IMG/VR virus record: IMGVR_UViG_3300034200_001896
Location: 1 to 64,000 of that record
Direction: 5' to 3' (one strand)
From: a virus
DNA length: 64,000 nt
The translations under genes and the position numbers were made by a program. Below, piece by piece: positions 5,687-43,368 of this stretch (position 1 is the first letter of the stretch; each line of letters opens with the position of its first letter). The notes under the pieces are model-generated. The model saw only the letters and a program-made list of their open reading frames with translations, searched no databases and was not told where the DNA came from.

Positions 5687-5992
5687 ATGAGTATGGCAAT
5701 TATGATGGATGATAAAGATAAAGAACTATTATTAAAAGAGATATTGAAAAAATATCTAAAAAAAGAAGATAATATTTATCTCTCAGAAAGGCTATTTATT
5801 GCAAAATCAGTTTTAAATTGGATTTTTGAAAATAGCAAACATCCTAATGTTATTAAGCTTTATGTAAAAGATTTGGAAAAATATTTAAACGGCGAGATGG
5901 ATTTAAAATGGATTAATGGCATAATTACCAAAAAATCCAAGAAAGAAAACAAAAATGATAACAAGAAAACAAAAGACACAAAAGAAGAATAA
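5687..5992 (+). CDS. Hypothetical protein
   Basis: ORF packed in the operon. Confidence 0.55.
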   Translation: MSMAIMMDDKDKELLLKEILKKYLKKEDNIYLSERLFIAKSVLNWIFENSKHPNVIKLYVKDLEKYLNGEMDLKWINGIITKKSKKENKNDNKKTKDTKEE

Positions 5993-6623
5993 AACAGGTA
6001 TGCCAGAAAATCCTAAAATTGAACATTTAGAAAAATTGCTTGATGTACCTATGTTTCAGATAGAACAAGCTTCTGCTGAGCCTATGAGAGTTGTTGGACT
6101 TTTTGGTGATGTAAATGAACAAACTTGTGCAGATGTGGTACAAAATCTATTAGTATTAAGCAAACAAGGAGAGATTCCAAAGGATGAACGTAAGGATAAA
6201 TATACACACCCGCCTATTGAATTTTATCTTAATACACATGGTGGAAGTGCCAGCGATATGTTTGCGATTTATGATATGATGCGCAATGCAAAAAAGAATT
6301 GTGAAATTCACACAATAGGTATTGGTAAAATAATGAGTGCTGGTGTTTTGCTATTAGCAGCAGGCACAAAAGGTAAGCGTAAAATTGGCTCTAATGCACG
6401 TGTTATGATTCATTCAGTTTTGGGCGGTAGCGAAGGCCCGTTATTTAATCTTGAAAATGAAATGAACGAAATACGTTTCGTTCAAGAAAAATACAGCAAA
6501 GCATTAACACGTGAAACAAATCTTACTGCAAAAGCAATGAAAGATTTATTAGAGAAGCACGTTAACATTTATTTATCAGCTGAAGAAGCAGTTAAATATG
6601 GAATTGCAGACGAGGTATTCTAA
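5955..6623 (+). CDS. clpP: ATP-dependent Clp protease proteolytic subunit
   Basis: YLNTHGGS, MSAG (catalytic Ser), GTKGKR, RVMIHS (His), YLSAEEAVKYGIADEV. Confidence 0.92.
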   Translation: MITRKQKTQKKNKTGMPENPKIEHLEKLLDVPMFQIEQASAEPMRVVGLFGDVNEQTCADVVQNLLVLSKQGEIPKDERKDKYTHPPIEFYLNTHGGSASDMFAIYDMMRNAKKNCEIHTIGIGKIMSAGVLLLAAGTKGKRKIGSNARVMIHSVLGGSEGPLFNLENEMNEIRFVQEKYSKALTRETNLTAKAMKDLLEKHVNIYLSAEEAVKYGIADEVF

Positions 6624-9723: not shown

Positions 9724-10383
9724 ATGAAAACTAACGGAATATATTGCATAGAAAATACTATAAATAACAAAAAATATATTGGCAGCAGTATTGATTGCGA
9801 CCATAGATGGTATATACACATTTGGCATTTAAAAAGGAAAGACCATCCAAATATACATTTACAAAGTGCGTGGGATAAATACGGAGAAAGTAATTTTAAA
9901 TTTTATCTCATAGAACAAAATATATTAGAAGAACAACTTCTTTCTAAAGAGCAATATTATATGAGTGTGTATAACACTCTTGATAGAGAATATGGATATA
10001 ATATTGCTGCCGACACAACTGCTCCAATGAAAGGCAGAAAACACTCTGAAGAATCTATAATGTTAATGTCCGAAAGAAAAAAGGGAGAAAAAAACAATTT
10101 CTTTGGCAAGCATCATTCAGAGGAAACAAAAGAAAAATTACGTAAAGGAAAAATAGGAAAAAAATTATCTCCCGAGCATAGATTAAAAGTAATTAAAAAT
10201 ATACATAAAATTGGAGCAGAAAACATAAACGCTAAATTAAATTTAGAATTAGTTAAACAAATGAGAGAAGAATATAAAAATAATAAATCTATAGAAATAA
10301 TAAAAAAATATTCTGAAATAACTGGCGTGCATTGTAGTACAATAAGACGAGTATTAAATAACAAAACTTGGAAAGAGAATTAA
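9724..10383 (+). mobile_element. Free-standing GIY-YIG homing endonuclease with NUMOD3 repeats
   Basis: GIYCIEN...KYIGSS...R...H, YGYNI, GRKHSEES/GKHHSEET; inserted directly upstream of groEL. Confidence 0.92.
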
Positions 10384-10385
10384 AA

Positions 10386-11960
10386 ATGAAAATCCAATCT
10401 GAATCAGAATTAACAAAATCAATTATAACTGGAGTTAATAAATTAGCAGATGCGGTTGGCTCTACTTTAGGACCAAAAGGAAGAACGGTGCTTTTACAGA
10501 GCAAAAATAAAAATCCAGTCATAACAAAAGATGGTGCATCAATCGCTAAATTTTTATCTCTTGATAATGAATTTGAAAATATCGGTGCCCAAGTTTTGAA
10601 ACAGGCTGCTATGGTTACAGCAACAGAAGCAGGCGACGGTACAACAACTGCAACCGTATTAGCAAGAGCGATTGTTAATCAAGCGCAGAAATATATTATC
10701 GCTGGTGCTTCTCCGACTGATTTAAAGCGTGGCATGGAAAGTGCAGCAGCAAAGATTGTTAGCAAGATTAAAGAAGTCAGCAAGCCAGTTACAAGTCTAG
10801 AAGATGTAGAAAATATCGCAACCATATCAGCCAATGGTGATAATAAGATTGGTAAACTTATTGCCACAGCGGTTGATAAAGTAGGTAAAGATGGAGCAGT
10901 AACAATTGAAGAAGGCAAGGCATTAGATACAGTATTAGATATTGTAGAAGGCTTCCAATTTGATAGCGGATTTGTATCTCCACAATTTATTACTGATGAA
11001 AGACGTGGTGCAGTGCGTTATGAAAATGCATTGGTAATGGTTACAGACCACAGTTTATCTTCTGTTGATGAAATGTTGCCAATATTAGAGGTTGCGGCAA
11101 GAGAAAACAAACCATTTATCATCGTAGCTGACAACGTTGAAGGACAATTATTGGCTGCATTAATTTTAAATACAGTTCGTGGTTCTATGCGTGTAGCCGC
11201 AATTAAAGCTCCACGATATGGTGAAGAACGTAGAAACATTCTTAAAGATTTAGCATTATCAGTTGGCGCTACCTTTGTTTCCCGTGAAAGCGGCATGCTT
11301 GTAAATGAAGTAAAGCGTCAACATTTAGGTGCTGCTAAAACTGTAGAAAGTCTTAAGACTTGGACTACAATTGTTGGCGGCGGTGGTAATTATGATGAAG
11401 TAGATAAGCGCATTGAATCATTAAAAACTGAGATAGCGGCCACTAGTGATATGCATGAATGCCAGCGTATTCAGGAACGTATCACCAGATTAGCCTCTGG
11501 AATCGCTATAATTCGCGTAGGAGGCTTAACAGAGGTAGACATGGTAGAACGGAAGCACCGCATTGAAGACGCTCTAGAGGCCGTTAAGAGCGCTCAAATG
11601 GAAGGTATATTGCCGGGTGGTGGAACAGCTTTATTAAAGTTATCCCGTAATCTTGATAAAGAAATAAGCGTTGAAAATGAAGATGAGCGCTTTGGTGTTG
11701 AGATTATCATGAAAGCCTGTGAGGAACCTATGCGTAAATTAGCTGAAAACTGCGGCTTGAAACCAGACGTTATGACTGAAAAAGTAGTTGAAAATACTAG
11801 CAGTTTCTGGTCTGGTGTTAATTTTGCTACAGGAGAATTTGTAGGATTAGATGTAGCGGGCATTATAGACCCAGCAAAAGTTACCCGTTGCGCTCTACAA
11901 AATGCGGTAAGTGCTGCGTCTACTTTACTCACCACTTCACATGCTATTATTGAAACTTAA
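10386..11960 (+). CDS. groEL: Chaperonin GroEL
   Basis: TLGPKGR, ITKDG, AGDGTTTATVLA, GILPGGG, IIDPAKVTRCAL; no GGM tail. Confidence 0.97.
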   Translation: MKIQSESELTKSIITGVNKLADAVGSTLGPKGRTVLLQSKNKNPVITKDGASIAKFLSLDNEFENIGAQVLKQAAMVTATEAGDGTTTATVLARAIVNQAQKYIIAGASPTDLKRGMESAAAKIVSKIKEVSKPVTSLEDVENIATISANGDNKIGKLIATAVDKVGKDGAVTIEEGKALDTVLDIVEGFQFDSGFVSPQFITDERRGAVRYENALVMVTDHSLSSVDEMLPILEVAARENKPFIIVADNVEGQLLAALILNTVRGSMRVAAIKAPRYGEERRNILKDLALSVGATFVSRESGMLVNEVKRQHLGAAKTVESLKTWTTIVGGGGNYDEVDKRIESLKTEIAATSDMHECQRIQERITRLASGIAIIRVGGLTEVDMVERKHRIEDALEAVKSAQMEGILPGGGTALLKLSRNLDKEISVENEDERFGVEIIMKACEEPMRKLAENCGLKPDVMTEKVVENTSSFWSGVNFATGEFVGLDVAGIIDPAKVTRCALQNAVSAASTLLTTSHAIIET

Positions 11961-24280: not shown

Positions 24281-24517
24281 ATGGCTTTAACAGAACGTAG
24301 TACAATTGATAAAATTGAAGTATTAGAAAACGGCATCATTCAAGTCCGTCGTGCAGACATTGTGGAAAGAGATGGAGTAGAAATTGCTAAAAGTTATCAT
24401 CGTTGGACTTTAAGCCCCGGTCAAGATTTAACAGGCCAAGAACAACGTGTTATAGATGTAGCAAATGCAGTTTGGACACAAGAAGTTATCGCTGCTTATC
24501 AACAAATAATTGGATAA
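24281..24517 (+). CDS. Tail-fibre-associated small protein
   Basis: DKIEVLENGIIQVR...SYHRW..PG, directly after the fibre gene. Confidence 0.6.
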   Translation: MALTERSTIDKIEVLENGIIQVRRADIVERDGVEIAKSYHRWTLSPGQDLTGQEQRVIDVANAVWTQEVIAAYQQIIG

Positions 24518-24521
24518 TAAA

Positions 24522-24860
24522 ATGAAGATTACAAATGAAGATATACGTAATTTAATTAAAGAATGTATGGATGATATGGGTTATGGTCAGGCAACAAATT
24601 TTGCCCCTCCAATCCAACCAGCTAACCCTGCACAAATGCCCATGCAAAATGCAGACCCAGATGGATACGAAGGCCGTATGGCAAAAGGAAATCTATTTAA
24701 AATGGCAGAATATGCCATGCAATTGCACAACATGATTCAAGATGGACAAAATCTTGAACCTTGGGTCGAAGAAAAAATAGCTGTTGCTGCCTCTATGTTA
24801 GATTCTGTTACACATTATATGCAATACGAAAAAGTTAGAGGCCCGCAGCAAGGGGAATAA
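24522..24860 (+). CDS. Hypothetical head-associated protein
   Basis: MKITNEDIRNLIKE leader; EGRMAK...LEPWVEEKI. Confidence 0.6.
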   Translation: MKITNEDIRNLIKECMDDMGYGQATNFAPPIQPANPAQMPMQNADPDGYEGRMAKGNLFKMAEYAMQLHNMIQDGQNLEPWVEEKIAVAASMLDSVTHYMQYEKVRGPQQGE

Positions 24861-24861
24861 T

Positions 24862-26457
24862 GTGCAAGATATCTTTAAAAACTGGAGAAGCTTTTTAAAC
24901 GAAAGCAAGGTAATAAAAGAAGTGTATCATATAGAGGGTATGTACCTACCAAAAGAATTCATTTCTAAGCTTCCAAAACCAGTTAAAGATAAAATTGAAG
25001 AATATGATGTATTAGATTTTGCTTTTGAAAGATATCGTCAATTATTTCCAGAAATAAAATTAACATCTCTACCACAAAAATTCCTTGTTCCATATGGCTC
25101 TGGAGAGGAATTGTTATTTGATTTTTCTTCTGATTCAACTCCAGAGACACAAGCTAGAAAACCCACACCAGATGAAATGGAACAGAGAAATAAATCTATT
25201 CCAGTACTTCCTAAAAATTGGTATAACGCTTTTCTTAATCGTCTAGGAGAGCCATTACTGACAGAAAGCAAGCATAAGCGTGACTTATCTTTAGTAACGA
25301 CTCTAGCGGTTTTTGATTTTGACCACACTTTATATAAAAGTCCAGAGGCTCCAAAGGGTCATAAAGGTAATTGGCATATCAAACCCGAATCCCTTCCAGA
25401 AAATCCTAAAGATAAATCTTGGAATAATGAGATAGTAATCAAAGCACAGGAACTTTGTGATGACCCATCTGTTTACTGTGTCATGATGACGGGTCGTGTA
25501 GGAAATGTGTTTGGTGAAAAGATAGATAATTATTTTAAACAACGTGGATTAAACTTTGCTAAAACTTTTTATAATGAATTCGGTGGCGATACCGCTGACT
25601 ATAAGATTGATAACATTAATAAACTTCTTAACAAATTATCAAATGTAAAATCGTTAATTATGTGGGACGATGATAGGGAAAAGGCAGAGAAATATTCTGA
25701 AGAGTTTGCAGACAAAATAGATTATAAGATACACATGGTCGGCGATGAAGAATTATCAGAAAGTAAATTTGAAGAAGTAAAATATGATGTAAATAATGTC
25801 GGTCTATTAACTTTAGATAAACGTAAATTCATTCTTTTCGATACTAAAAGATTAATTGATTTTGTTTCGCAATTACCAAAAGATAATCCAGATATGGATA
25901 GCGCTGCATTAATAGATAACAATATTACTTTATCTTATGCAGCAGTAACTCCAAATGATAAGTTAAAAAATCCCTGCATGGGTGCTGCTGAAAGAAGTAT
26001 ATTAGCGCAGAATCCAAGTATAAAAGGTTCTGGAATGGGCAGATACATGATGTCTGTTTTATTTAAGTTCTATCCAGAGGGTATAATGAATGATAGAGGT
26101 GATGTTAGCCCTATGGCTAAACAATCAGCTAGATTATTAGCGTTATCAGGCTTGGCTAAGATTAAGAAAATAAAAGACGGCGATGAGATTCTTGATAAAT
26201 TAGATGATATTGATAATCCAAAAACAGCAACAAAAAAAGATGATTGCGAAGTTCATAATGATGATTTGTTAGATAGAGTATATCAATACAACGACCCTAA
26301 CGTAAATGAGCAAGCGTTATTAAAGAAATCACAAGAAGCCCTACAGGTCTGTGAACAAATAACAGAAGGTAATTGGCCCACATATGCATTAGAAGATTTA
26401 ATAGAAGCTTCAGGAATGGCTCTTTATTATAGAAGTATAGATACTTCTAATATGTAA
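24862..26457 (+). CDS. Multidomain protein: Swiss-army-knife-type HAD phosphatase plus possible GNAT-like domain
   Basis: AVFDFDHTLYKSP...WN..IV...MMTGR...K...WDDD; later KGSGMGRYM; FKNWRSFLNE leader. Confidence 0.65.
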   Translation: MQDIFKNWRSFLNESKVIKEVYHIEGMYLPKEFISKLPKPVKDKIEEYDVLDFAFERYRQLFPEIKLTSLPQKFLVPYGSGEELLFDFSSDSTPETQARKPTPDEMEQRNKSIPVLPKNWYNAFLNRLGEPLLTESKHKRDLSLVTTLAVFDFDHTLYKSPEAPKGHKGNWHIKPESLPENPKDKSWNNEIVIKAQELCDDPSVYCVMMTGRVGNVFGEKIDNYFKQRGLNFAKTFYNEFGGDTADYKIDNINKLLNKLSNVKSLIMWDDDREKAEKYSEEFADKIDYKIHMVGDEELSESKFEEVKYDVNNVGLLTLDKRKFILFDTKRLIDFVSQLPKDNPDMDSAALIDNNITLSYAAVTPNDKLKNPCMGAAERSILAQNPSIKGSGMGRYMMSVLFKFYPEGIMNDRGDVSPMAKQSARLLALSGLAKIKKIKDGDEILDKLDDIDNPKTATKKDDCEVHNDDLLDRVYQYNDPNVNEQALLKKSQEALQVCEQITEGNWPTYALEDLIEASGMALYYRSIDTSNM

Positions 26458-26538
26458 ATTAAAAAGGCTTAACAAACTTTTTTCTCTTTGGTATAGATAC
26501 TACTACTTAGTTGTACTTTCTTAAGGAGCTAACTATCT

Positions 26539-26817
26539 ATGTGCATGATTTGTAAGGGTCTAGAAAAGGGTAAGTTCTCACCAGAAGATGCCCGTGAAAA
26601 ACTTGAAGAGTTCGTTGATTTAGATTTGCTAGACGAAGACCACCAAGAAGAAGTAGAGTCCCTTATTGCTGAAGCGGAAGAAGAGGAATTCTATTGGGCT
26701 TCAGCTAAGAAAGATGTGCGTAAATACGAAGACTATGATGATGAATACGTAGACGAAGAAGAATATGCAGATGATTATTCCTATCCCGACGATGAAGAAG
26801 AACCGTTAGAAGACTAA
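26539..26817 (+). CDS. Very acidic small protein with N-terminal CxxC
   Basis: MCMIC; D/E-rich tail; RBS AAGGAG. Confidence 0.7.
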   Translation: MCMICKGLEKGKFSPEDAREKLEEFVDLDLLDEDHQEEVESLIAEAEEEEFYWASAKKDVRKYEDYDDEYVDEEEYADDYSYPDDEEEPLED

Positions 26818-26825
26818 TTATATGC

Positions 26826-27518
26826 ATGAAGTTTATTTGCGACCACACCTATGGTTTCGGCAAAATGCGGAATCAGAACATTATCTATGTTCCGTTTGGT
26901 GTGATGTTGGAGCCAAATGAATATAAAGAATATCTAGAACAAGGTTGGTATCCAGCAACAAATGATATATGGTTTCAAACACGCAGCACGCGAATAAACT
27001 TAGAACATTATAAGCCAACAAAAACAGTATTACGTCTGGCAAAGAAGGTTAAATACTTTCCAGACGTAAACATGACCCCAGCCAAACGTGAAAGATTAGC
27101 ACGAATCTATGACAAGTATATCGAACACAAAGGCTATAGTGATGATATGTCAATTGATGATATTATCACTAATAGTCACGGGCATATCTACTATGTATAT
27201 AATAATGAAATCGTTGCATTTGCGTTTTATAAAGTTATCGAAGATGCTTACTTGGGCATAGAATTTGCGTGGGATTATGGCGAACCAAAACTTTCTTTGG
27301 GTCATGTCAATGTATATTACAATTCTCTTTTTGCTCGTTTCAAGCGTTGTAAATATATTTACCTATCTTCTGGATATGAAAGTTGTTCCATTTATAAAAG
27401 CCAATATCCGGGCTTTGAGTGGTGGCTTGGTTACCAATGGTCTACGGACGTTGAAATGTATAGAGAATTATGTAAAAGGGATGATGAAATAAAGATAGAA
27501 GCTGGAGACTTAATATAA
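26826..27518 (+). CDS. ATE1/Bpt-like aminoacyl-tRNA--protein transferase
   Basis: YLEQGW...STRINL (N-domain-like); AWDY..PKLSLG...YIYLSSGYESCSIYK.QYPGFE (ATE_C-like). Confidence 0.72.
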   Translation: MKFICDHTYGFGKMRNQNIIYVPFGVMLEPNEYKEYLEQGWYPATNDIWFQTRSTRINLEHYKPTKTVLRLAKKVKYFPDVNMTPAKRERLARIYDKYIEHKGYSDDMSIDDIITNSHGHIYYVYNNEIVAFAFYKVIEDAYLGIEFAWDYGEPKLSLGHVNVYYNSLFARFKRCKYIYLSSGYESCSIYKSQYPGFEWWLGYQWSTDVEMYRELCKRDDEIKIEAGDLI

Positions 27519-27581
27519 AGTTGTTAACAGCAAGATGTTCTGTGATACTATCAGTTATGTTGTTCAGCCAGTGAGGGATAA

Positions 27582-28577
27582 ATGATTGATTACGCTGATG
27601 TTATTGTTGACTTGGCTTATGGTGATTCCGGTAAGGGAAAAGTAACGCACTTACTTAGTAAGAGTGGTGAATATACACATTGTATTAGGTACAATGGGTC
27701 GAATAATGCAGGCCATACAATCTATCATGAGGGTAAAAAGATTGTAACACATTCAATTCCTACAGGGGTTGTGCATGGTGTCAAGTCTATTATTGGCCCC
27801 GGTTGTGTAATGAATGTTAAGCAATTCTTTGATGAACTTAAGGAGTTGCAAGATGCCGGTATTAACACTGACGGTCTTGTATATATTGCAAAGAACGTTC
27901 ATATCATCACAGAAGAGCACTTGCAAGAAGATAGACAAGATGCTAAGATAGGTACAACGAAGCGAGGCAACGGTCCAGCATATCGTGATAAGTACGCTAG
28001 GAAAGGAATTCGCGCAGAACAGATTCCAGAATTACAAAACTATTTAATAGACATATATGAAGAGCTTCATAGTGACAATACAAGATGTCGCATCCTTTTT
28101 GAAGGGGCTCAAGGATTTGGTTTGGATATCGACTTTGGTGATTATCCTTATTGCACTAGCTCCACATGCACAGTTGGCGCTGCTGTTGCTAACGGCGTTC
28201 CTCCAAGCAAAATTAGGAATGTATGGGGAATAACTAAAGTATATGAGACATATGTTGGTGGTAAAAAGTTTGAACCTGATGAACCTATATTTAAACATAT
28301 TCGTGAACTTGGTGGTGAATATGGTGCCACAACTGGTCGTCCTCGTCAATGCAATTGGATAAATACAGCTCTATTACGCAAAGCTGCCAGAATCAACGGT
28401 GTTAATCGTGTTGTGTTTAATAAGGCAGATATCCTTCGCAAGATTAATCAATGGAAGGCATATGATGTAAATGGTAATCTTATTAACTTCCAAGATGAAG
28501 AGCTAATGAAACAATGGATGCAAGAAGTATTACCAGATGTAAAGATTTATTGGAGTGATTCACCCGATAAATTGTAA
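27582..28577 (+). CDS. purA: Adenylosuccinate synthetase (short form)
   Basis: YGDSGKGK, NNAGHT, IGTTKRGNGPAY, FEGAQG, GDYPYCTSS, EYGATTGRPR, NKAD. Confidence 0.95.
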   Translation: MIDYADVIVDLAYGDSGKGKVTHLLSKSGEYTHCIRYNGSNNAGHTIYHEGKKIVTHSIPTGVVHGVKSIIGPGCVMNVKQFFDELKELQDAGINTDGLVYIAKNVHIITEEHLQEDRQDAKIGTTKRGNGPAYRDKYARKGIRAEQIPELQNYLIDIYEELHSDNTRCRILFEGAQGFGLDIDFGDYPYCTSSTCTVGAAVANGVPPSKIRNVWGITKVYETYVGGKKFEPDEPIFKHIRELGGEYGATTGRPRQCNWINTALLRKAARINGVNRVVFNKADILRKINQWKAYDVNGNLINFQDEELMKQWMQEVLPDVKIYWSDSPDKL

Positions 28578-28599
28578 ATTAAAAAAGAATATAAAGTGC

Positions 28600-28655
28600 T
28601 TTACAAGAAGAAGCAGTAGAAGTATAGTAGATACATCAACTGAGCCGAAAGGCTC
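28600..28655 (+). promoter_or_regulatory. Sigma70-type promoter plus 5' GAAA-tetraloop hairpin
   Basis: TTTACA-17-TATAGT, then GAGCC-GAAA-GGCTC. Confidence 0.65.
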
Positions 28656-28674
28656 CATAACCAAGGAGAAATAA

Positions 28675-28953
28675 ATGTCTAACCGTACCAATTCAACCCG
28701 TCGTTCTTCCACCCGCAACTCCCGTCCAGTTTATAATGTAACTGAAAAGGGCGTATATCGTCGTGAGCGCAAGCTTTCACGTATCGGCATGGGAATTCGT
28801 CGTGGTGATACCCGTCACGGTGATTATTCCAACGTAGTACTTTGGAAGCCAACTGACAGCGATGGTCCGTCCCGCCGTTTCGTAATGTCCCTTGCTGAAG
28901 CACGTGCATTCAAGGCATTCCTTGACCGTGAGCTTCAAACTCTCGCTCGCTAA
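28675..28953 (+). CDS. Arg-rich, probably highly expressed nucleic-acid-binding protein
   Basis: Strong RBS, biased codons (CGT, GGT, TCC), own promoter and terminator. Confidence 0.7.
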   Translation: MSNRTNSTRRSSTRNSRPVYNVTEKGVYRRERKLSRIGMGIRRGDTRHGDYSNVVLWKPTDSDGPSRRFVMSLAEARAFKAFLDRELQTLAR

Positions 28954-28995
28954 ATAAAAAGCAGCAAGACTAAAATAGAATAGTTGCAAATCTGC

Positions 28996-29026
28996 CGCCC
29001 ACCTGATACAATCAGGTGGGCGTTTT
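28996..29026 (+). terminator. Intrinsic terminator overlapping the next promoter
   Basis: CGCCCACCTGAT-ACA-ATCAGGTGGGCG-TTTT; TTGCAA(28984)-17-TACAAT(29007) overlaps it. Confidence 0.75.
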
Positions 29027-29040
29027 GCATTGGAGATACA

Positions 29041-29496
29041 ATGACTGAAAACAAAACTAACATTTTAAAAGTTGCATTTCCTAATTTTATTCGTGAGAGT
29101 TTTTATATTGAATGTGGTAATGGTTGGTTTGATATTATTGCAGAGGTTTGTCAATTTATTGAATCAAAAACAAAATATTGCCACGCTCAACAAATTAAAG
29201 AAAAGTTCGGCCTACTCAGAATCTATTTCGATTGTGATTACGATGAAAATGGTGAACCATTAACCGATAGAGATACAATGGAAGAAATATATTCCTTTAT
29301 TAATAAAAAAGAAAGCGAAAGTAAAAACATATGTGAAGATTGTGGTATAAAGCTTGTAGAAGATAACAGGGCTAAGAAAGAACATCTTGGTTATTGGATT
29401 GCAAATATCTGTATGGATTGTCTTGATAGAACAAATCGGGAAGCATCAGAAAGATTAGAAAAAAAGATTTATAAGACCCTTAAAGAAAAGCCATGA
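29041..29496 (+). CDS. Conserved phage hypothetical protein (GW...QIKEKFGxLR family)
   Basis: CGNGWFDII...QIKEKFGLLRIY...CEDCG. Confidence 0.75.
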   Translation: MTENKTNILKVAFPNFIRESFYIECGNGWFDIIAEVCQFIESKTKYCHAQQIKEKFGLLRIYFDCDYDENGEPLTDRDTMEEIYSFINKKESESKNICEDCGIKLVEDNRAKKEHLGYWIANICMDCLDRTNREASERLEKKIYKTLKEKP

Positions 29497-31558
29497 GTGA
29501 ATTTAAATTAGGAGACTTAGTTGAATTCATCCCAGAAAACTTTGATTATCCAAATTATACATATCGCTTAATAGGTATTGGTTATATAGAACAAATTACA
29601 GAAGATAATATTTATTTCGTTTATTGCGGTAAAGTTATAAAACAACAAATGAAAAACTTTGCAGAACTAGAATTAAAAGATAAAACCTTTTCTTTTACGG
29701 AAGAAATAATGAGGATAATATGCAGGAAGATAAATTCAAAGTAGGAGACTTGTTAGAATTTTGTACAGAAAAGCAGCAGCTATGGAATCACGATGACTTG
29801 ATTTATGAAGGTTACGGAATGGTTGTTTCTATTGAGCCGGGAGAACATATAGATGAAATGATATATACAGTTGATATTTATAAAGGCACAGAAACAAGTA
29901 TAAAGGCTAATGCCGATATATCTGGATTTAAGTTTAAACTTTACGAGTCACAAATTCATCATGATATGAGGTTACTAAATGCGGGAACTAAAAATAAAAC
30001 CAGAGATAGGTAAATTATATAAATTCCGAGAAGATAATCGTGAAGCACTGTTAAAAAAATATAGTCACCATTATACTGGCTTGCTTTTATGTATTCAGAC
30101 AGATATAATAAATGATATAAGCGTTCCAGAATCTGTAAAAAATTGGGTTCAACATCCTAATCCTATATATCAATTTGAAGTTTATAACTGCGTACAGATA
30201 TTTGCACAAATAGATTTTTTCGGTAGAAAAGAAATAATTATTAAGTCTCCTTTGTATTTAACTCTTTTTGAACTAAACGATATGATAGAGGATGCATATG
30301 GCAAGAAAGAAACATAAAATTGGTGATTTAGTTTTATGCACTCCACAAGAAGAAGATGTTCGGTTTGTTTTTGGAATCATAAAAAGCTACGACCGTCAAT
30401 TTTACTTTGTCGATTGGACCGATGGTAATCATGACACGGAACCTTATTCTTGGCACGAAATTCAACACTGGAAAGAGATATTACAAAAACATGTTAAAGG
30501 TCGGTGATTTAATAATGAATAAGTTTGGTAATCTTGGAATGATAACCAGTTTAGTTTATCATCCAACTATTAAAAAATATAATAGTGGTTATGTTGAGTG
30601 GTATCCATATAATCCAAAACAAGGTAAAATTAATTTATCTATTTCTAAACTAGAAGAATATAGAGATAACTTTACTGGTTATATGTTTTTAGAAAAACGC
30701 GGGGCACGGGTAGAATGAAAAAACGCGAAGCGCCTAAAAAAATTTTTCCTCCCGGCTCACTCATCGCCATGCGTGATAGTAAATTAATAGGTATGATAGT
30801 AGAATATGACTACGATTCCAACCTCCATGATTGGTATCGTGTTGAATGGTTTGGTGCGAACGGCGAAATTGGATGGATGGAAACCCTAACATCACACGAA
30901 ATAAAGATATACACCCGTGAATATAAGCAATTGCGTAAAGACCTTGGCATCTAGAAAGACTATGGTATCATGTATCTATGAATCAGTTCCTTGGACACTT
31001 GGTAATGAATTATGCTTACAGGTTAGGAATGGTTATCTATACAGATATAGATAATGGTTGGCATACGGTTGAATGGTTGGGCGGCAACATAGAAATCGCC
31101 AGTTATCCTACATTTTCAATAACCAATTTTATCAGGACATACGAAAATTATAAGGATGAAAACAAGCTATGAACGAAAGCGAACTTTATCGTGTTGGAGA
31201 ATTGGTGCATTCCCGCCATGCAGGATATGGAATAATTACAAGTGTATACCAACACGGTGCAACTATCTATTGGTTTGAACTTAAGAAATATAGTCCCGAA
31301 GCATTTCATTGGGTAGCAACGTTTAAAAAGGATTTGTATAATAAATTACGGGGTGAAGAAGAATGAAATACGCAATCGGTGACCTTGTGGCGTTTGGTTA
31401 TAAAATCGGCATGATAACCAATTATGATGTTAAAGATAAAACATATCAAGTTGAATGGGCGGCAAATCGCTTAGAGCTTATTCCAGAGGAACGTGTTGGT
31501 GCCCTACGCGAACACTTTGTGACACTCAGGAATTTGCTAAAGCTATCAGGATATTCTA

Positions 31559-31777: not shown

Positions 31778-32179
31778 ACTTTAAGATTGGTGACTTGGTA
31801 GCAACTCCGCAATGGACATTGCATGGCGATAAAACGTGCTTGGGCATGATTGTTGCCAGAAACACAAGCAGTTGGAAGGTAGATTGGTATGGAATAGAAG
31901 TGGAATTTTCTTGGTATACACCAGATGATATAAAACTATTTCGTAATAATTATTTAAAGTTGCGTAAGGAAAATGGAATTTAAACTTGGTGATTTAGTTG
32001 CCACAGATGCTTGGACACCAGAAGGATATAAAACATGCTTAGGCATGCTTGTATATAGAAGAGATGATTTATATTGGAAAGTTGATTGGTATGGTTGTTA
32101 TGTTAAAACGCCTTGGTATTTACCATATGAATTAAAACCGATGCGTGAAAAATATTTAGAATTACGTGACAACTTATGA
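31774..32179 (+). CDS. Two closely similar adjacent paralogs (31774-31983 and 31973-32179)
   Basis: FK(I/L)GDLVAT..WT..G.KTCLGM...WKVDWYG...WY.P..K..R..YL.LR in both. Confidence 0.85.
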
Positions 32180-34118
32180 AATACGGTGAACATTACATAG
32201 GCCACATGGTTGGTTATAGAGAAGACGACCGCTTTTCTATTGGCATGATTGTTGGATATGATGAAGATATTCCGCATGTTCCATATCGTGTTGAATGGTA
32301 TGGTGAATATAGGGGAACAAAATTGGTTAATTATACGTTAGCACAAATAATGTTTTACATGGACGAGTACAATAAATGGACGAAGAAGATATCCTAACAC
32401 GACCAAAAGTTGGCGATATGGTCATGGACATGGAAAATTATGGCATGATTATAGAACAGATTGGTAGCAAGTTCCTAGTTGAATGGTATGGCCGGATGCG
32501 TTATGCTTATCGCTATGATGTTTCAACGGTACGTTTGATGCGGCAAGACTTCTTGTATTATAAAAAACATGGCAGGCATCCATTGTCAATGTAAATATGA
32601 ACTATATTCCACGTATTGGCGACTTAGTGTTATATGAGTCTCTTCATGGCAAATCTACTCTTGGAATAATTAAGGGCATATATATCTATCCTTCGGATTT
32701 AGAAAATATACATCCAGATGATTTTGTTGGCAATCTTTACCGTATACTTTGGATAACCGAGAACGATGAAGCAGGATATATTATAGATAGGGTAAAGGAA
32801 TATAGACAGAATTATTTAAGATGGAGAAAAAATAATGGTTTATGAACCACAGGTTGGTGATTTGCTAGCGGTTGAAAACGAAAATTCTCAAATTGTGTTG
32901 GGAATGATATACAAAAAATATAAAAAGGGTGGACGGACAGATTACTATACGGTAGAATGGTTTGACGAAACAACGTCATATGAATACAACATTGGCGACA
33001 TAGATACATTTAGAATACAATTTGTAAAATGGCGAGACAGTGAATGCATCAACCTCCATACATAGGTGAATTGCTTGCTGTCCATGACTATAAAAAAGAT
33101 TATATTCTTGGAATGATTGTAGACATATGTGATGATGGTGATTTTCCATACGTTATAGATTGGTATTACAAAGACGCATCTGTTGTTGATTCAGCTTATA
33201 CAAGTTTAGAAGATGTGCTACTGTATCGTAAACGTTTTCGGGAACTAAAAAAGAAACTATGAACATAAATATTGGCGACCTTGTGTTACAAAACGGCAAT
33301 AACCTTGGTATGATTATTGGTGCATTTGATGGTCAATATATAGTTGAATGGTATGGCAATGATGATGTAACGCCATACAAGTTTAATTATTCGCCGTTTA
33401 TCACCGAAAGCTTTCGCAGAACATACATGAAATACAGGAAATGGATATGAAAGATTATATTCCAAAACTAGGTGATTTAATACTAAAGCATGTTGGTAAA
33501 GAATATATGATTGGAATGATTGTCGAAGAATATGCCTCCTCTTGGTCTGTGGAATGGATTGGTCGTGACCTCCTATATTCAGGATATACACAAACAGAAT
33601 TGATGCATGCCAGACAATCTTTCCTAAAGTTTAAGAAAACCCTATGAAACATCCTATCACAAAAGTTGGTGCCCTTGTTGCCCACAAAACTAATCCACAA
33701 AGTGAATTCACCTTGTTTGGTCATGTGGTGGAGATAGTCCAGAACGATAGCTACCCACATGGTTATGGTTATAGGGTTATTTGGCACAACAATGATAGCG
33801 ATGAATACGTTTACAACACGCGAGAAATAGATTACTATCTAGGTATAGTTGAGGAGTTGAAGAAACTATGAAAGCCCATGTCGGAAGTCTTGTTGCAGTT
33901 AAAATAACAGGGCTTCATGCGTTAAATAATGGCAGCAAAATAGTTGATGGTAGCAAACGCACAGGTTTATTATTTGGTCATGTGGTGGAGATAAAAGAGG
34001 GTAGCAAAAAGATTATTAAGCATTACCGTGTTATATGGGATAATGGTAACGAGTTTCTTTACAATGATTATGAAATGGATACATATCTAAAAAACATACA
34101 GGATATAAAGAACAGTTA

Positions 34119-34592
34119 ATGAGTACTACCTACCCACTACCCCACCACCCCCCCTCTACCCATCTACTACTCCAGCAGGGGGAGATGGTCTATATGATAA
34201 GCGGGAGATTAAAGCGTGAAAGGATGAAAGGATATTTCACTACATATTCCTATATGGACCCGCAAGAAGTAGTGGACAACTTTATAGCTAATGATAGTGA
34301 AGCTGTAGCCAAACGTAAATCCACCGGGGAACTAATAAATATAAGTACCCATATGATTGGTTATATCCTAAGCGATAGGAAGTATAGTGAACAACATGCT
34401 GTGATGCAAAGTCCCCTATTAATAGGTTATGATATCCGTTGGGAATATGCTCAGAGTAACGGGCATCATAATATCTTTGAAGATGAGGAAAGCATTGTGC
34501 CATTAAAAGACCTAATTATATTAAACCCAGAAGAATTAAAGGGTGAGGTCTTTAATGATGGTGGACCCAAGAAAGGTCAGCAAGCCGGATAA
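34119..34592 (+). CDS. Hypothetical protein, possibly an expanded SH3-like member
   Basis: QGEMVYM...IGYI...YDIRWE. Confidence 0.55.
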   Translation: MSTTYPLPHHPPSTHLLLQQGEMVYMISGRLKRERMKGYFTTYSYMDPQEVVDNFIANDSEAVAKRKSTGELINISTHMIGYILSDRKYSEQHAVMQSPLLIGYDIRWEYAQSNGHHNIFEDEESIVPLKDLIILNPEELKGEVFNDGGPKKGQQAG

Positions 34593-34670
34593 AGATAGAC
34601 CATACTTGTTGATTGATGTAACTATATCAACCATCCTGTTATATTTTTTATATTGTATAGTTTCTTAACA

Positions 34671-34746
34671 AGTCAGAAGCATGACGCCAAAAGCTTGTCA
34701 TGCCATATAGTTGACGCCAAGATTCTGTCGTGACCATATGTTGCCC
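34671..34746. repeat. Tandem degenerate 16-bp palindromes (consensus YGTCA-N6-TGACR)
   Basis: AGTCA-GAAGCA-TGACG, CGCCA-AAAGCT-TGTCA, TGCCA-TATAGT-TGACG, CGCCA-AGATTC-TGTCG. Confidence 0.7.
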
Positions 34747-35080
34747 TACTTGTAGCGTAAAGATTCTATACATGGGTGGCGCTAATAACTAACAATGGCA
34801 AAAGTAGAAAAACTAATACGGTGTGTTAGGGATTGGAAAAGGTGAGAGTATTTAACCCCCACGCACGAAAAAATATCTAATCATTTCAAGGGGTTACGCA
34901 ATCACATATTGTATATTCTTGCCTCGCTTAACAATTGACATAACACATGGTACCATGCCTAATCGTTGCTGTATAGCTCCCTATATTCCCTGTATATTAT
35001 TAGGTGATTATGTCTGCAATTAGATTGCGCTTGACTTCCCCATCCCTTGTGATATGATGGGGGAAGCCCGGCGGCTGGCG

Positions 35081-35144
35081 TGTCACATGGGGGTGACAGT
35101 ATGGAAAAAAGGGGTTGCGGGGATAGGGGTACCTGTGTTATACT
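35081..35144 (+). promoter_or_regulatory. Operator-promoter module 1
   Basis: TGTCAC-ATGGGG-GTGACA, 16 nt, TTGCGG-18-TATACT. Confidence 0.8.
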
Positions 35145-35236
35145 AATATCGCGGTGTGGGAGTCCGTGCTAGCCGCCATTATGGGTAAAAGGTCGGGAGT
35201 ATATCAGACCTAGGCCCCCTGTCAAGGGAAAAGTGA

Positions 35237-35299
35237 TGTCACCCGCAGGTGACACCCCGAAAACCTCTGCTTGCCAATATGGGGAGGGGGGTGTATTAT
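35237..35299 (+). promoter_or_regulatory. Operator-promoter module 2
   Basis: TGTCAC-CCGCAG-GTGACA, 16 nt, TTGCCA-17-TATTAT. Confidence 0.85.
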
Positions 35300-35337
35300 G
35301 GGTACATCTTCAACGGCGAACCACGGAGAGAAAAACA

Positions 35338-35928
35338 ATGGCATGGAAAGACGGCAAGCGTACAGTGATGTGCCGACGGTGTTATAGTTATGGGCATAAT
35401 ATGCGGTCCTGCCCTACAATGTCTCCAGAAATGAAGGCTATGTATAAGGATGGAGATAGGGCCCGCAAGTGCTCCTACTGTTCCGAGAAGGGTCACACCA
35501 AACGCAAGTGTGAGAAGCGAACCAAAGACATAGCAGAATACGCTGCCGAGAATAAGAAGTATCGGAAGGCTTATCTTGATGCTATGGTTCAGCATGGTCT
35601 GTCCATTGGTTCTCTTGTCACCCCCATGGGGGCACGTGGTGAAAAGGATTTGGGTGACATTAGCCCAGAATATATTGGCATGGTGACACACATTGAATGG
35701 AAAGACATTCAATATCGTCGTCGTTCCAATCGTCCTATCCAAGCTAAACGGTTGGGCGAACAAGAGAATAACTGGAATAATGATATGTGGTTGGGTAGTC
35801 CGCCAATCAATAGCAAGGATTATGAAAGCTGGGGCAGATGTCAAGTATTGTCCCGCCGTAATGATATCCTGTCTCATGTTCCCGCTGATTGGTTGGATGG
35901 ATTGAGCGGGGCAGAGGAGTTCTTCTAA
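35338..35928 (+). CDS. Double zinc-knuckle (CCHC) protein fused to an SH3-like domain
   Basis: CRRCYSYGHNMRSC, CSYCSEKGHTKRKC; LSIGSLV...GMVTHIEW. Confidence 0.75.
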   Translation: MAWKDGKRTVMCRRCYSYGHNMRSCPTMSPEMKAMYKDGDRARKCSYCSEKGHTKRKCEKRTKDIAEYAAENKKYRKAYLDAMVQHGLSIGSLVTPMGARGEKDLGDISPEYIGMVTHIEWKDIQYRRRSNRPIQAKRLGEQENNWNNDMWLGSPPINSKDYESWGRCQVLSRRNDILSHVPADWLDGLSGAEEFF

Positions 35929-35933
35929 CCCAC

Positions 35934-35993
35934 TGTCACCGCAGAGTGACGCCGAAAAAAACCGGTTGCGCTTCCCGGTGGTTGTGGCATAAT
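35934..35993 (+). promoter_or_regulatory. Operator-promoter module 3
   Basis: TGTCAC-CGCAGA-GTGACG, 14 nt, TTGCGC-16-CATAAT. Confidence 0.75.
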
Positions 35994-36048
35994 AGGTTCA
36001 TCAATCGCAGTTAACCACCCACGCAGTATAGCACAAACGAGGTTGCAC

Positions 36049-37098
36049 ATGGCTGTTGATTTCAAGACGTTCCTTAAGGTTGTTCCCCACGTTGCCGCTG
36101 TCAAGAAGCCTGTCCTTATCCGTGGTCGTCACGGTGTCGGTAAGAGCGAGACTGTGTATGCCTTTGCTGCCAATCGTGGCATGAAGGTTGTGGAGCGTCG
36201 GGCATCCCAAATGACCGAGGGTGACCTGATTGGTCTGCCGTCTATTGACGGTAACAGCACCAAGTTCAATCCTCCTGATTGGTTTAAGGATTGTTGCGAT
36301 AATGGTCGGGCGCTGTTTCTTGACGAGGTGGACCGTGCTACGCTTGAGGTTCGTCAGGGTATTTTCGAGTTGACCGATTCCCGCAAGCTTAACGGTCACA
36401 CGCTGCATCCTGATACGCTTATCTTTGCCGCTGTGAACGGTGGTGTGCATGGTGCACAGTATCAGGTGGGCGAGATGGACCCTGCCGAGTTGGACCGTTG
36501 GACTGTCTTTGACCTTGAGCCTTCCGTTGATGATTGGCTTGATTTTGCAAAGACTAACGCTGACGGTCTGATTTGGGATTTCATTAACCAGAACCGTGGG
36601 CACCTTGAGCACAAGGGAGAGTTTGAGCCTAACAAGGTTTATCCCTCTCGTCGTTCTTGGATGCGTCTTAATGAGTGTCTGACCCATGCGGGCTTCCTTG
36701 GTACCGATGTTAAGAATAACCTCACTCCTATCTATGAGATTGGGTGTGCCTTTGTTGGCTTTGAGGCTTCGGTTGCCTTCCGTGACTTTGTTGACAAGTA
36801 TGAGCGTCAGGTGACTATTGACGACATTCTTGCTGGCAAGCTTGAGAAGGTTAAGGATTGGGGCATCAATGACCACACCGCTATGGCAGACAAGCTTGTT
36901 GCGTCGGGTCTGTTTAAGGAGGAGTTGACCGATGCAAAGATTGACGCTGTTTGCAAGTATGCTCACCTTATGCCGTCTGAGGTTTGCATGAAGTTCTGGC
37001 GTGCCTTGTCGGGTGAGAATGTCAAGAACACGGTCAAGATTCACGATAAGCTTTCCGACCGTATCATCACCATTCTTAATCCCGCTGCCAAGAAGTAA
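36049..37098 (+). CDS. MoxR-type AAA+ ATPase
   Basis: GRHGVGKS Walker A, LFLDEVDRA Walker B, AAVN, MDPAELDRW, PSRRSW. Confidence 0.92.
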   Translation: MAVDFKTFLKVVPHVAAVKKPVLIRGRHGVGKSETVYAFAANRGMKVVERRASQMTEGDLIGLPSIDGNSTKFNPPDWFKDCCDNGRALFLDEVDRATLEVRQGIFELTDSRKLNGHTLHPDTLIFAAVNGGVHGAQYQVGEMDPAELDRWTVFDLEPSVDDWLDFAKTNADGLIWDFINQNRGHLEHKGEFEPNKVYPSRRSWMRLNECLTHAGFLGTDVKNNLTPIYEIGCAFVGFEASVAFRDFVDKYERQVTIDDILAGKLEKVKDWGINDHTAMADKLVASGLFKEELTDAKIDAVCKYAHLMPSEVCMKFWRALSGENVKNTVKIHDKLSDRIITILNPAAKK

Positions 37099-37109
37099 TG
37101 CATGACATT

Positions 37110-37140
37110 GCGGGGGAGGTTGAATGACTCCCCCGCTTTT
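37110..37140 (+). terminator. Intrinsic terminator
   Basis: GCGGGGGAG...CTCCCCCGC-TTTT. Confidence 0.8.
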
Positions 37141-37171
37141 GTTGTATGTCTTTGCCTAGCCGCCCAAATAT

Positions 37172-37474
37172 ATGACAAAACTGGAACAAGAGTATAGAAG
37201 CAATATTGGCAAGTTATTTGTTCACCGTGATAGACAATGGACAGGAGCAGCTAAAGGTTGGGTGTTGGTAGGTGATTTGGTAATGATTGAGAAGGTGGAG
37301 AAACAGGGAGGATGGTATCACTATCACATGGAGATTATCAAACGCAATCTAGATAATGTGCCAGATATAAAAGATTCTAGAAATAAGCGTATTGTATCTT
37401 GCCGAGAGTTTCACAGGCACAGCGAATCCCCCCTGTCACTCTTGGGTGACACGGAAAACAAGGAGGTTGCATAA
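37172..37474 (+). CDS. Hypothetical protein, YxxxIGKLF subfamily
   Basis: YRSNIGKLF; 3' end contains operator module 4. Confidence 0.7.
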   Translation: MTKLEQEYRSNIGKLFVHRDRQWTGAAKGWVLVGDLVMIEKVEKQGGWYHYHMEIIKRNLDNVPDIKDSRNKRIVSCREFHRHSESPLSLLGDTENKEVA

Positions 37475-37494
37475 ATCTCAGGATGGGGTACTAT
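37434..37494 (+). promoter_or_regulatory. Operator-promoter module 4
   Basis: TGTCAC-TCTTGG-GTGACA, 15 nt, TTGCAT-16-TACTAT. Confidence 0.8.
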
Positions 37495-37524
37495 GTATCC
37501 ATAACTCGCTGATGGAGAAGCACA

Positions 37525-38721
37525 ATGGCTAACGAGACTGAGCAGTTCGACCTTGACCGTTATATCTACAATCTCTTGCAGAACGAGCCGTTCTTTGCAG
37601 AGATTTCCCGCCATGTTGAGAAACGTTCCAGCACCGCAATCCCTACCGCTGGTGTGCGTATCACCAAGGAGGGACAGTTTGAAATGATGTATAACCCTGC
37701 CTTCTTCCAGAAGCTTACCCGTGAGCAGCGGGCAGGTGTTATCAAGCATGAGTTTTATCATTTGGTTTTCGGTCACGTCACTGACCGTATGCCTGATGGT
37801 AAGATGTCTAAGAAGTGGAATATTGCAACTGACCTTGCAATCAATAGTCATATCAAGGATGAACTGCCCTCAATGGCTTGCATCCCCGGTGTTGGTCCCT
37901 TCAAGGATTTGCCGTTGTTTGAATCGTCTGAGTGGTATTATAACAATCTGCCAAAGCAAGACGAAAAGAGCGGCAAGGGATTGGGTGAGGGTTCTCCTGA
38001 TGGTGGTGGTGAGGGTGAATCTGATTCCTTCGACGACCATTCCCAGTGGGGTGAGAACGCAGAGAACCTTGACCCCGGATTGCGTGAACTCGCCAAGGAA
38101 CGTCTGCGTGAAATGATGCGAAGCGCAGCAGAGGAGGCCAACAAATCCTCTAATGGTTGGGGTTCTGTCACTCATAATATCCGCAAGGAGATTATGGACC
38201 GTATCTCTGGCAAGATTGATTGGCGTGCGGTGCTGCGCTACTTCATCAAGACCTCTCAGCGTTCTGCAAAGACTAGCACGGTTAAGCGTATCAACAAGCG
38301 TTACGCTTACATCCATCCCGGTCAGAAGGTGCAGCGTCATGCTAAGATTGCCATTAGCATTGACCAGAGCGGTTCTGTCTCGGATGAAATGCTGGAAGCT
38401 TTCTTCTCTGAACTAAACAACCTTGCAAAGATTGCCACGTTTACTGTGGTACCCTTTGATACGGAGGTTGATGATAACCTTGTTTATGTTTGGAAGAAGG
38501 GAATGTCTCGCAGGAAGGAACGTGTTAAGTATGGCGGAACTGACTTTGACGCTCCAACCAAGTATGTTAATGATAAGGGGTTCGATGGACATATAGTGCT
38601 TACAGATATGCAGGCACCAAAGCCTATCACTAGCAAGTGCCAGCGTATGTGGATGACTACTAAAGATTGTATGTCGTCGGCCCCTTTTAAGACTCATGAG
38701 CGGGTAATCCCTGTTGAATAA
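37525..38721 (+). CDS. DUF2201-type metallopeptidase plus VWA domain protein (MoxR partner)
   Basis: IPTAGV, KHEFYH, NIATDLAIN, DQSGS (MIDAS), GGTDF, LTD. Confidence 0.9.
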   Translation: MANETEQFDLDRYIYNLLQNEPFFAEISRHVEKRSSTAIPTAGVRITKEGQFEMMYNPAFFQKLTREQRAGVIKHEFYHLVFGHVTDRMPDGKMSKKWNIATDLAINSHIKDELPSMACIPGVGPFKDLPLFESSEWYYNNLPKQDEKSGKGLGEGSPDGGGEGESDSFDDHSQWGENAENLDPGLRELAKERLREMMRSAAEEANKSSNGWGSVTHNIRKEIMDRISGKIDWRAVLRYFIKTSQRSAKTSTVKRINKRYAYIHPGQKVQRHAKIAISIDQSGSVSDEMLEAFFSELNNLAKIATFTVVPFDTEVDDNLVYVWKKGMSRRKERVKYGGTDFDAPTKYVNDKGFDGHIVLTDMQAPKPITSKCQRMWMTTKDCMSSAPFKTHERVIPVE

Positions 38722-38732
38722 ATAAACACATA

Positions 38733-38770
38733 TGGTGTGGGCAGTAAGGCAGACGATACTGCCCACACCA
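38733..38770. terminator. 14-bp-stem hairpin, possibly bidirectional terminator
   Basis: TGGTGTGGGCAGTA-N10-TACTGCCCACACCA. Confidence 0.75.
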
Positions 38771-41873: not shown

Positions 41874-41957
41874 GCCCCCATGGTGGAATCGGTAGACACA
41901 ACAGACTTAAAATCTGTCGTCCGCAAGGGCATCCCCGTTCGACTCGGGGTGGGGGCA
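41874..41957 (+). tRNA. tRNA-Leu(UAA)
   Basis: GCCCCCA/TGGGGGC, ACAGA-CTTAAAA-TCTGT, long V-arm, TTCGACT. Confidence 0.95.
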
Positions 41958-43258: not shown

Positions 43259-43327
43259 GCCCCGTGTAGCGGACCTACTAGTTGGTCTTCTAAACCGACA
43301 AAAACCGTTCGACTCGGTTACGGGGTG
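43259..43327 (+). tRNA. tRNA-Arg(UCU) with shortened D-arm, atypical
   Basis: GCCCCGT/ACGGGGT, TTGGT-CTTCTAA-ACCGA, AACCG-TTCGACT-CGGTT; 69 nt. Confidence 0.7.
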
Positions 43328-43368
43328 CTATAGTAAGTAGTTGGGTAAAACAGAAAAGTCTACCTAAA

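Follow-up and report, generated by a model that had tools for sequence, protein, structure and literature searches.

The stretch analysed here (the window, 64,000 nucleotides) covers positions 1 to 64,000 of the IMG/VR virus record IMGVR_UViG_3300034200_001896, and we found in it the gene of a 230-aa protein that, judging by its sequence and its predicted structure, is a genuine, conserved and virus-only variant of the ATE1/Bpt superfamily of aminoacyl-tRNA transferases. The similarity to ATE1 and Bpt goes beyond chance, because the protein has 77 homologues, 36 columns of the family alignment are invariant and the family profile matches yeast ATE1. Our preferred, still tentative reading takes the protein for an aminoacyl transferase that depends on tRNA and has a non-canonical acceptor, most likely a protein or peptide N-terminus. 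In cells, N-terminal aminoacylation of the tRNA-dependent kind is known in the form of ATE1, Bpt and Aat. A first-pass annotation, made from the nucleotide sequence, had proposed an ATE1/Bpt-like transferase of a possible viral N-degron pathway at 26502-27518. The ATG-started open reading frame (ORF) is indeed there, but the 26502 start also covers an intergenic stretch and the gene of a small acidic protein. The ATE_C-like motifs LSLG, YIYL and GYESCSIYK that it pointed out are present in the translation.

26826..27518, plus strand: ATE/Bpt-like aminoacyl-tRNA transferase gene ("ATEL"), 230 aa, ATG start

The 230-aa protein matches Pfam ATE_C with an E-value of 6.6e-4 (20.7 bits; gathering score 25) and four NCBIfam models of Bpt-type "arginyltransferase" with E-values of 4.9e-6 to 3.7e-3, the latter with scores of 17-26 bits that are far under the cut-offs of 170-252. 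The 77 homologues found at E≤1e-3 are 193-247 aa long; many of them carry a precomputed PF04377 match, and two had been named arginyltransferase by the JGI pipeline. Judged from the 36 columns that are invariant among 35 sequences (43-89% identity), the transferase family is under purifying selection. The profile built from these 35 sequences matched yeast ATE1 with an E-value of 4.9e-5, and a 76-sequence profile did so with 1.5e-9 (1.7e-9 for the ATE1 of K. lactis). Pfam ATE_C is matched by 53 of the 76 members at E≤1e-3, the best at 1e-12. Aligned with hhalign to ten bacterial Bpt genes taken from genomes (232-274 aa), the family profile gave a probability of 99.0% and an E-value of 8.4e-18 over 181 columns (window residues 29-207), with residues 29-75 placed on the ATE_N region of Bpt. 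A single-sequence phmmer search against PDB chains gave nothing significant (best E-value 0.43), the Pfam LFTR (Aat) family did not match the 230-aa protein at E≤1, and PHROGs has no family for the transferase, the sole match being of 11 residues (E-value 0.0077).

The AlphaFold2 model of the transferase (predicted local distance difference test [pLDDT] 87.6, predicted template modelling score 0.85) shows a predicted two-lobed fold of the ATE1 type, made up of an ATE_N-like fold without the cysteines, an ATE_C GNAT core and a short C-terminal helix. In the ATE_N lobe, as far as alignment and model tell, the fold is retained and the sequence signature is gone. Ranks 1-24 among the Foldseek matches listed are all ATE1, the best being the human enzyme (E-value 1.2e-8), with MprF/L-PGS and FemX beneath. 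VIA, a second and Foldseek-independent fold search over 48,161 chains, also placed human ATE1 first (Z 16.1, root-mean-square deviation 3.6, 216 residues, model 1-222) and the K. lactis enzyme (KlAte1) second (Z 14.7, 209 residues), followed by MprF (13.9), L-PGS (13.8), FemX (13.6) and Sbb17 (11.9) and, further down, by ordinary GNATs (about 9-12) and LFTR (2DPS, 9.3). The top place in both searches thus belongs to ATE1 and not to an unrelated GNAT or FemABX enzyme, in keeping with the family first proposed.

ATE1 (K. lactis 7WFX/7WG1, S. cerevisiae 7TIF/8E3S, human 8TZV) is the best fold match, over about 210 residues, and differs in length, with about 500 aa and a variable domain at the C-terminus against 230 aa and no such domain in the viral protein, and in that the viral family is restricted to viruses. 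Bpt, the Asp/Glu leucyltransferase (NCBIfam PRK01305), has the same size class and the same domain order of ATE_N and ATE_C, but the viral proteins form a clade of their own. Aat/LFTR (2DPS) would be a functional analogue, as a small bacterial N-terminal aminoacyl transferase for which no metal site is needed, although its fold is only distantly related (Z 9.3). FemX/FemA, MprF (L-PGS/A-PGS) and the tRNA-dependent peptide synthase Sbb17 are users of aminoacyl-tRNA with a common GNAT-derived fold (Z 11.9-13.9), and their acceptors are lipids, peptidoglycan precursors and antibiotics. As the next-best folds, they bear on a possible, if rather unlikely, alternative in which the same chemistry serves a non-protein acceptor, be it a small molecule, a nucleotide or nucleobase, a lipid or a cell-wall precursor. 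It agrees with this alternative that Acetyltransf_6 is also matched by 8 of the 76 family members and LPG_synthase_C by 1 of the 76. However, ATE1 stands above MprF, FemX and Sbb17 in both fold searches, these proteins are mostly aligned over the C-terminal lobe only (e.g., model 30-202 or 48-202), and the N-terminal lobe, which forms the polypeptide cleft in ATE1, is kept as a fold in the viral protein, whose alignment to ATE1 runs over model residues 1-222.

The family was confirmed at 223 IMG/VR loci and comprises 387 clusters at 50% identity (E≤1e-3). Neither a tblastn search with three divergent members nor a blastn search with 8 kb of the window found a match in GenBank phage records (50,697 in the tblastn search). 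One genome each of 185,579 prokaryote species yielded two loci only, both on contigs below 10 kb in metagenome-assembled genomes (MAGs), L084 (9.7 kb) and L085 (8.0 kb), labelled Neomarinimicrobiota and Betaproteobacteria. Pfam ATE_C had no match at E≤0.01 in either of these MAGs, and the two are probably viral contigs that were binned into MAGs. In a quick IQ-TREE phylogeny of 164 representatives and the 10 Bpt, the viral proteins fell into one clade with a Shimodaira-Hasegawa approximate likelihood ratio test (SH-aLRT) support of 100. Fused forms of 488-2000 aa were not found, a weak negative; the range of 403-488 aa lay outside the search. Limited full-text literature searching found no published phage or viral member of the ATE/Bpt-type transferases.

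Conservation of the residues known from ATE1 was counted over 236 unique family members. Residues of KlAte1 are given in native numbering (the chain index of 7WFX is this plus 4, checked at W260, S273, E277, Y289, C298 and Y303), and their roles are given as in excerpts of PMC9351520 and PMC10115844, to which the statements cited from these papers are limited. The following correspondences were obtained:

KlAte1 Y303 (hydroxyl essential, PMC9351520): window Tyr190, conserved in 216 of 236
KlAte1 K304: window Lys191, conserved in 235 of 236
KlAte1 W260 and D261: window Trp149 and Asp150, conserved in 188 and 165 of 236
KlAte1 Y173: window Tyr98, conserved in 198 of 236
KlAte1 alpha3 patch K112/K119/R120 (tRNA 3' segment, PMC9351520): window Lys66/Lys73/Lys74, with Arg70 nearby
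KlAte1 H178 (phosphates of tRNA C75/A76, PMC9351520): window Gly103, not conserved

Basic residues are common across the family at positions 66, 70, 73 and 74, and the GNAT-core motifs are kept along with the basic tRNA-binding helix. On the evidence of these alignments, the donor-side residues of ATE1 are shown to be retained in the transferase family.

Conserved donor-side (tRNA) residues together with lost acceptor-side features would also be expected of a noncatalytic protein that binds the 3' ends of charged tRNAs to sequester or protect them, for example, in repair or counter-defence together with its HAD neighbour. The upstream neighbour has a HAD_SAK_1 domain, which is named for RNA-repair proteins, and the phage has a tRNA island. 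Still, we consider such a binder highly improbable: the near-invariance of Tyr190/Lys191, Trp149/Asp150, Arg53/Arg56 and Trp205 exceeds what binding needs, the amino-acid pocket comes in discrete types, as the specificity site of an enzyme would, and a PADLOC search of the transferase and five neighbours had no match.

In KlAte1, S255, S273, E277 and Y289 have been inferred to bind the arginine moiety, and E277K has undetectable activity, E277A very low activity and E277D wild-type-like activity (PMC9351520); the Bpt counterparts of the four residues are Ala/Ala/Gln/Leu (PMC9351520), the Bpt-to-ATE1 residue map used in this work being that of our own alignments. S. cerevisiae ATE1 has an aspartate in the E277 column. 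In the window protein, the same four positions are Gly144, Asn162, Asn166 and Ile178, so that Ser/Ser/Glu/Tyr of ATE1 contrasts with Gly/Asn/Asn/Ile, whereas an uncharged donor pocket is a likeness to Bpt. Because this pocket contains no acidic residue, the donor would be an uncharged amino acid rather than arginine, which seems unlikely as the donor in this clade.

Of the 236 members, 160 have Glu at position 166; the others include 22 with Asn, 18 with Leu and 18 with Ala. The most frequent pocket signatures are Ser-Ser-Glu-(Met/Leu/Ile/Val). In the IQ-TREE phylogeny, the 8 rows that make up the Gly-Asn-Asn clade of the window (support 100) fall inside a larger clade of 37 rows (support 99) whose basal and most other members are Ser-Ser-Glu, with sister clades that are Ala-Asn-Leu and Ala-Ser-Ala. 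The Glu or non-Glu state of the pocket changes at least 10 times over the 164 representatives (118 Glu, 46 non-Glu). The pocket reads as a labile specificity site, apparently of the Arg type in most relatives and of another type in the enzyme of this phage. A wider reading, which we hold to be unlikely, is that this virus-only branch, with both of its specificity sites rewired, is a set of diversifying, lineage-specific and tRNA-dependent "amino-acid taggers." The pocket would then switch between an Arg-type (Ser/Ser/Glu), a polar-neutral (Gly/Asn/Asn) and hydrophobic (Ala/Asn/Leu, Ala/Ser/Ala) forms, and each tagger may add the residue of its lineage to one dedicated target of the phage or the host, here perhaps the acidic protein.

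On the acceptor side, the signature residues of ATE1 and Bpt are missing. R80 of KlAte1 is needed for acidic N-termini, and R80E abolishes activity (PMC9351520). This residue, the first Arg of the G-F-R-R-S-G motif, aligns to window Tyr42 (hhalign column confidence 8/9) and the second Arg to Pro43. Position 42 is hydrophobic or uncharged in 231 of the 236 members (L 71, F 48, I 33, Y 26, C 15, V and others), a gap in 5 and Arg or Lys in none. The 230-aa protein has four cysteines (5, 175, 187 and 216), and none of them corresponds to the N-terminal metal-site cysteines of ATE1/Bpt, as had been noticed from the sequence. The metal site of KlAte1 is formed by C23/C26/C95/C96 (CxxC...CC in ATE1; PMC9351520), while the Bpt set is invariant for C22, C66, C69, C72 and the G-F-R-R-S motif, all absent from the viral protein. 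An 8-residue deletion takes out two of the four metal-site cysteines and Thr52 stands in place of the last; no N-terminal column in the alignment of the 236 members has Cys in 60 or more of them. The zinc site is critical for the stability of ATE1 and shapes substrate access (PMC10115844). Arg53 (230 of 236), which is family-specific, adjoins the lost metal site, and Arg56 is kept in 232 of 236. Because the Cys4 site and the acidic-reading Arg are gone and the position of the latter is aromatic or aliphatic, we infer that the rule of acceptor recognition differs from that of ATE1/Bpt.

These replacements bear most directly on the pathway originally put forward, a viral Leu/ or Arg/N-degron branch in which Leu or Arg is added to N-terminal Asp or Glu to trigger destruction by ClpS/ClpAP. 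ClpS and ClpAP are encoded by most bacteria. The membership in the ATE/Bpt superfamily, the Glu used by ATE1 for its Arg donor, kept in 160 of 236 members, and the near-invariant Arg53/Arg56, which sit near the cleft and may bind a carboxylate, are all compatible with this pathway, as is the naming of ClpAP as the bacterial N-degron protease (PMC9351520). Against it stand the acidic-end position with no Arg or Lys in any of the 236 members, at which R80E kills ATE1 activity (PMC9351520), the absence of the Cys4 site, critical in ATE1 (PMC10115844), the Asn rather than Glu in the donor pocket of this clade, and the nature of the protease and tRNA genes that had been brought in as its support. 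The ClpP reported for the window is present as a ClpP-fold ORF, one of two paralogues in one fragment, but its best PHROG match is a head-maturation protease:

5955..6623 (window): ClpP-fold ORF
66772..67398 (record; L083:1375-2001): ClpP-fold ORF, paralogue of the former

The two match head-maturation-protease PHROGs with E-values of 3.9e-22 and 3.4e-45 and "ATP-dependent protease" PHROGs more weakly (1.6e-7 and 1.1e-19). ClpS, which was to be looked for elsewhere in the genome, had no match (PF02617, E≤1) in the record, whose 85,763 bases amount to about 34% of the genome; ClpA was not separately searched for. Within the tRNA island at 41737-43690, ARAGORN predicted eight tRNAs, of which Rfam supports five (Leu, Lys, Gln, Asn and Glu); Ile(UAU, 85 nt), Arg(UCU, 70 nt) and Tyr(GUA, 86 nt) fall short of an E-value of 0.01 with the Rfam tRNA model. 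The tRNA-Leu(UAA) of the first-pass annotation is predicted by both ARAGORN and Rfam (41874..41957, 54.4 bits in Rfam), and the tRNA-Arg(UCU) (43259..43328) is an ARAGORN prediction without Rfam support. We therefore regard the N-degron pathway as improbable.

Returning to the preferred reading of a tRNA-dependent transferase with a non-canonical acceptor, the enzyme would take the aminoacyl group, probably that of an uncharged amino acid and not Arg in this clade, from a charged host or phage tRNA and pass it to an amine, for which the alpha-amino group at the N-terminus of a protein or peptide is the likeliest candidate. The transferase would be translated as a pair with a Met-Cys-initiated acidic protein, which could be its partner or its target, and the outcome could be a degradation tag, an altered protein activity or another effect. 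The genes around the transferase and the elements that accompany them are as follows:

24862..26457, plus strand: gene of a 531-aa protein whose residues 180-284 are a HAD phosphatase domain (HAD_SAK_1, Pfam E-value 8.3e-14)
26523..26528, plus strand: AAGGAG ribosome-binding site of the acidic gene, 10 nt before its ATG
26539..26817, plus strand: acidic-protein gene ("c14"), 92 aa, with its stop 8 nt before the transferase start
27582..28577, plus strand: short adenylosuccinate-synthetase-like gene directly downstream, 331 aa (Pfam E-value 5.7e-83)
28996..29022, plus strand: terminator-like hairpin 3' of the gene block, 12 pairs, 8 of them G-C, with a T-run

The Asp/Glu-rich protein described upstream of the transferase has, as stated then, a strongly acidic composition (38 of 92 residues D+E, isoelectric point 4.05). 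Its 11 homologues all start with M-C-x-[IV]-C, and M1, C2, C5 and H35 are invariant. The model (pLDDT 72) has an N-terminal domain of three helices (3-10, 15-27 and 33-64), followed by a disordered Asp/Glu tail, and had no fold match at E≤0.001 (best E-value 6.5); its ESM-Atlas neighbours are unnamed viral clusters. When the transferase and the acidic protein were predicted as a complex, the ipSAE values were 0.01 and 0.01, a result obtained without controls and neutral on binding. A pattern scan for the acidic protein found at least 6 loci, and 5 of 6 among the matches listed are on contigs already known from the transferase search.

A leaderless start had been suggested for the transferase, but the sequence in question, ACTAATTA, includes the TAA stop of the upstream acidic gene, and the transferase ATG follows 8 nt further on; the start is operon-internal and probably coupled to the upstream gene. 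The AAGGAG at 26523..26528, whose GGAG core is shared by 9 of the 11 relatives aligned, is likely the translational entry for the pair formed by the acidic gene and the transferase. A TACTACTTA-like motif lies at 26478-26500 and at the same place in relatives L002, L003, L005 and L006. In 5 of the 11 relatives aligned, this motif precedes the ribosome-binding site of the acidic gene by about 30-40 nt, and it may be a phage promoter element. Counts of promoter-like (18 versus 21.5 expected from shuffling) and terminator-like sequences (3 versus 3.0) showed no excess in 24300-29600.

Gene neighbourhoods were compared on 80 of the 223 IMG/VR loci. In 13 window-like loci, the gene order is small ORF, HAD phosphatase, acidic protein, transferase and PurA-like gene; 12 of the 13 have the acidic gene (immediately 5' of the transferase in 10) and 9 have the PurA-like gene. 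The HAD part forms a gene of its own in the relatives, 170-220 aa long and immediately 5' of the acidic gene. The C-terminal ~230 residues of the 531-aa protein were found by BLASTP fused in a different protein of 632-650 aa. The PurA-like gene carries the PHROG label "2-aminooxy adenylosuccinate synthetase," and PurZ was considered as its identity and rejected, as the gene is far nearer to bacterial and archaeal PurA (E-values of 1.4e-60 to PurA and 2.7e-44 to short archaeal PurA, versus 2.4e-19 and 4.4e-15 to solved PurZ). In another lineage, the transferase sits between two large ORFs that resemble, by eye, the ribonucleotide reductase subunits nrdA/nrdB.

A very conserved 64-70-aa protein ("c1") is encoded directly 3' of the transferase, often overlapping it, at 36 of the 80 loci and in three different contexts; its cluster comprises 37 loci (e.g., L017:6662-6865; L014-L055 and others), one member not being adjacent. 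Pfam does not match this protein, and the record of the window contains no homologue. When the clusters c1, c18, c23, c2, c62, c22, c99, c113 and c118 were sought in this record, only a c118-related GNAT was found, at 79349-79765. Pfam searches of eight neighbour proteins from other lineages gave nothing above the cut-offs except PDDEXK_1 (22.1 bits). No partner gene was common to all lineages across the compared neighbourhoods.

The conserved HAD phosphatase and PurA-like neighbours, the ribonucleotide-reductase-like ORFs of the other lineage and the replacement of the acidic-N-terminus Arg by hydrophobic residues can all be taken in favour of the non-protein acceptor introduced above. Nevertheless, the neighbourhoods vary by lineage without a biosynthetic partner shared by all of them, and clustering with nucleotide genes is common among early and middle genes of phages.

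The window stretch is met again in metagenomes of lake water and fresh water (24 runs among the matches listed, from 23 studies, 2018-2025). Contigs from RNA libraries match it with zero differing letters; of four runs, three have pieces inside the transferase and two have pieces inside the acidic gene, the parts of the transferase without RNA-contig cover carrying no meaning. The RNA contigs of all four runs end at 28986-28997, at the foot of the hairpin at 28996-29022. An Illumina adapter is present on one of these ends. Word depths are highest, at up to 78, on the contigs that cover a 92-aa Arg/Ser-rich ORF at 28675..28953.

Several of these observations weigh against a tRNA-dependent transferase that acts on protein or peptide N-termini. 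The 230-aa protein scores under the Pfam ATE_C gathering cut-off (20.7 versus 25 bits) and none of the 76 family members matches Pfam ATE_N. The counterpart of His178 is Gly103, without conservation in the family, and the choice of donor as read from the pocket extrapolates from the mutagenesis of one yeast enzyme. Arg53 could restore the recognition of acidic N-termini. The conserved neighbours are nucleotide-metabolism genes, which a non-protein acceptor would fit at least equally well. Lastly, RNA libraries can hold DNA, so that the contig matches are only a hint of transcription.

With hundreds of members in uncultured lake and ocean phages, the family would extend aminoacyl-transfer chemistry to viruses, and its variable pocket would provide natural specificity variants for how donor and acceptor are chosen. 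If host proteins are tagged, this would be a new phage route to reprogram host proteostasis; if the acceptor is a small molecule, the family would point to an undescribed phage pathway. Putative metal-free enzymes of 230 aa could also be attractive for in vitro assays and as tools for protein N-terminal labelling.

The source record, a linear virus contig, has 85,763 bases and a CheckV completeness of ~34%, which makes it a fragment of a giant lake-water phage with a genome of roughly 250 kb. Besides the tRNA island, it codes for GroEL, tail-spike-like virion proteins and a GIY-YIG/NUMOD3 endonuclease. The homing-endonuclease gene (9724..10383) overlaps the start of the phage GroEL gene (10368..11960), and the GroEL has 44% identity to GroELs of Flavobacterium and Vibrio phages. 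The G+C content climbs from 0.33-0.36 to 0.40-0.49 at ~32-52 kb (32001-52000) and then drops again, in agreement with a compositionally distinct region noted in the first-pass annotation.

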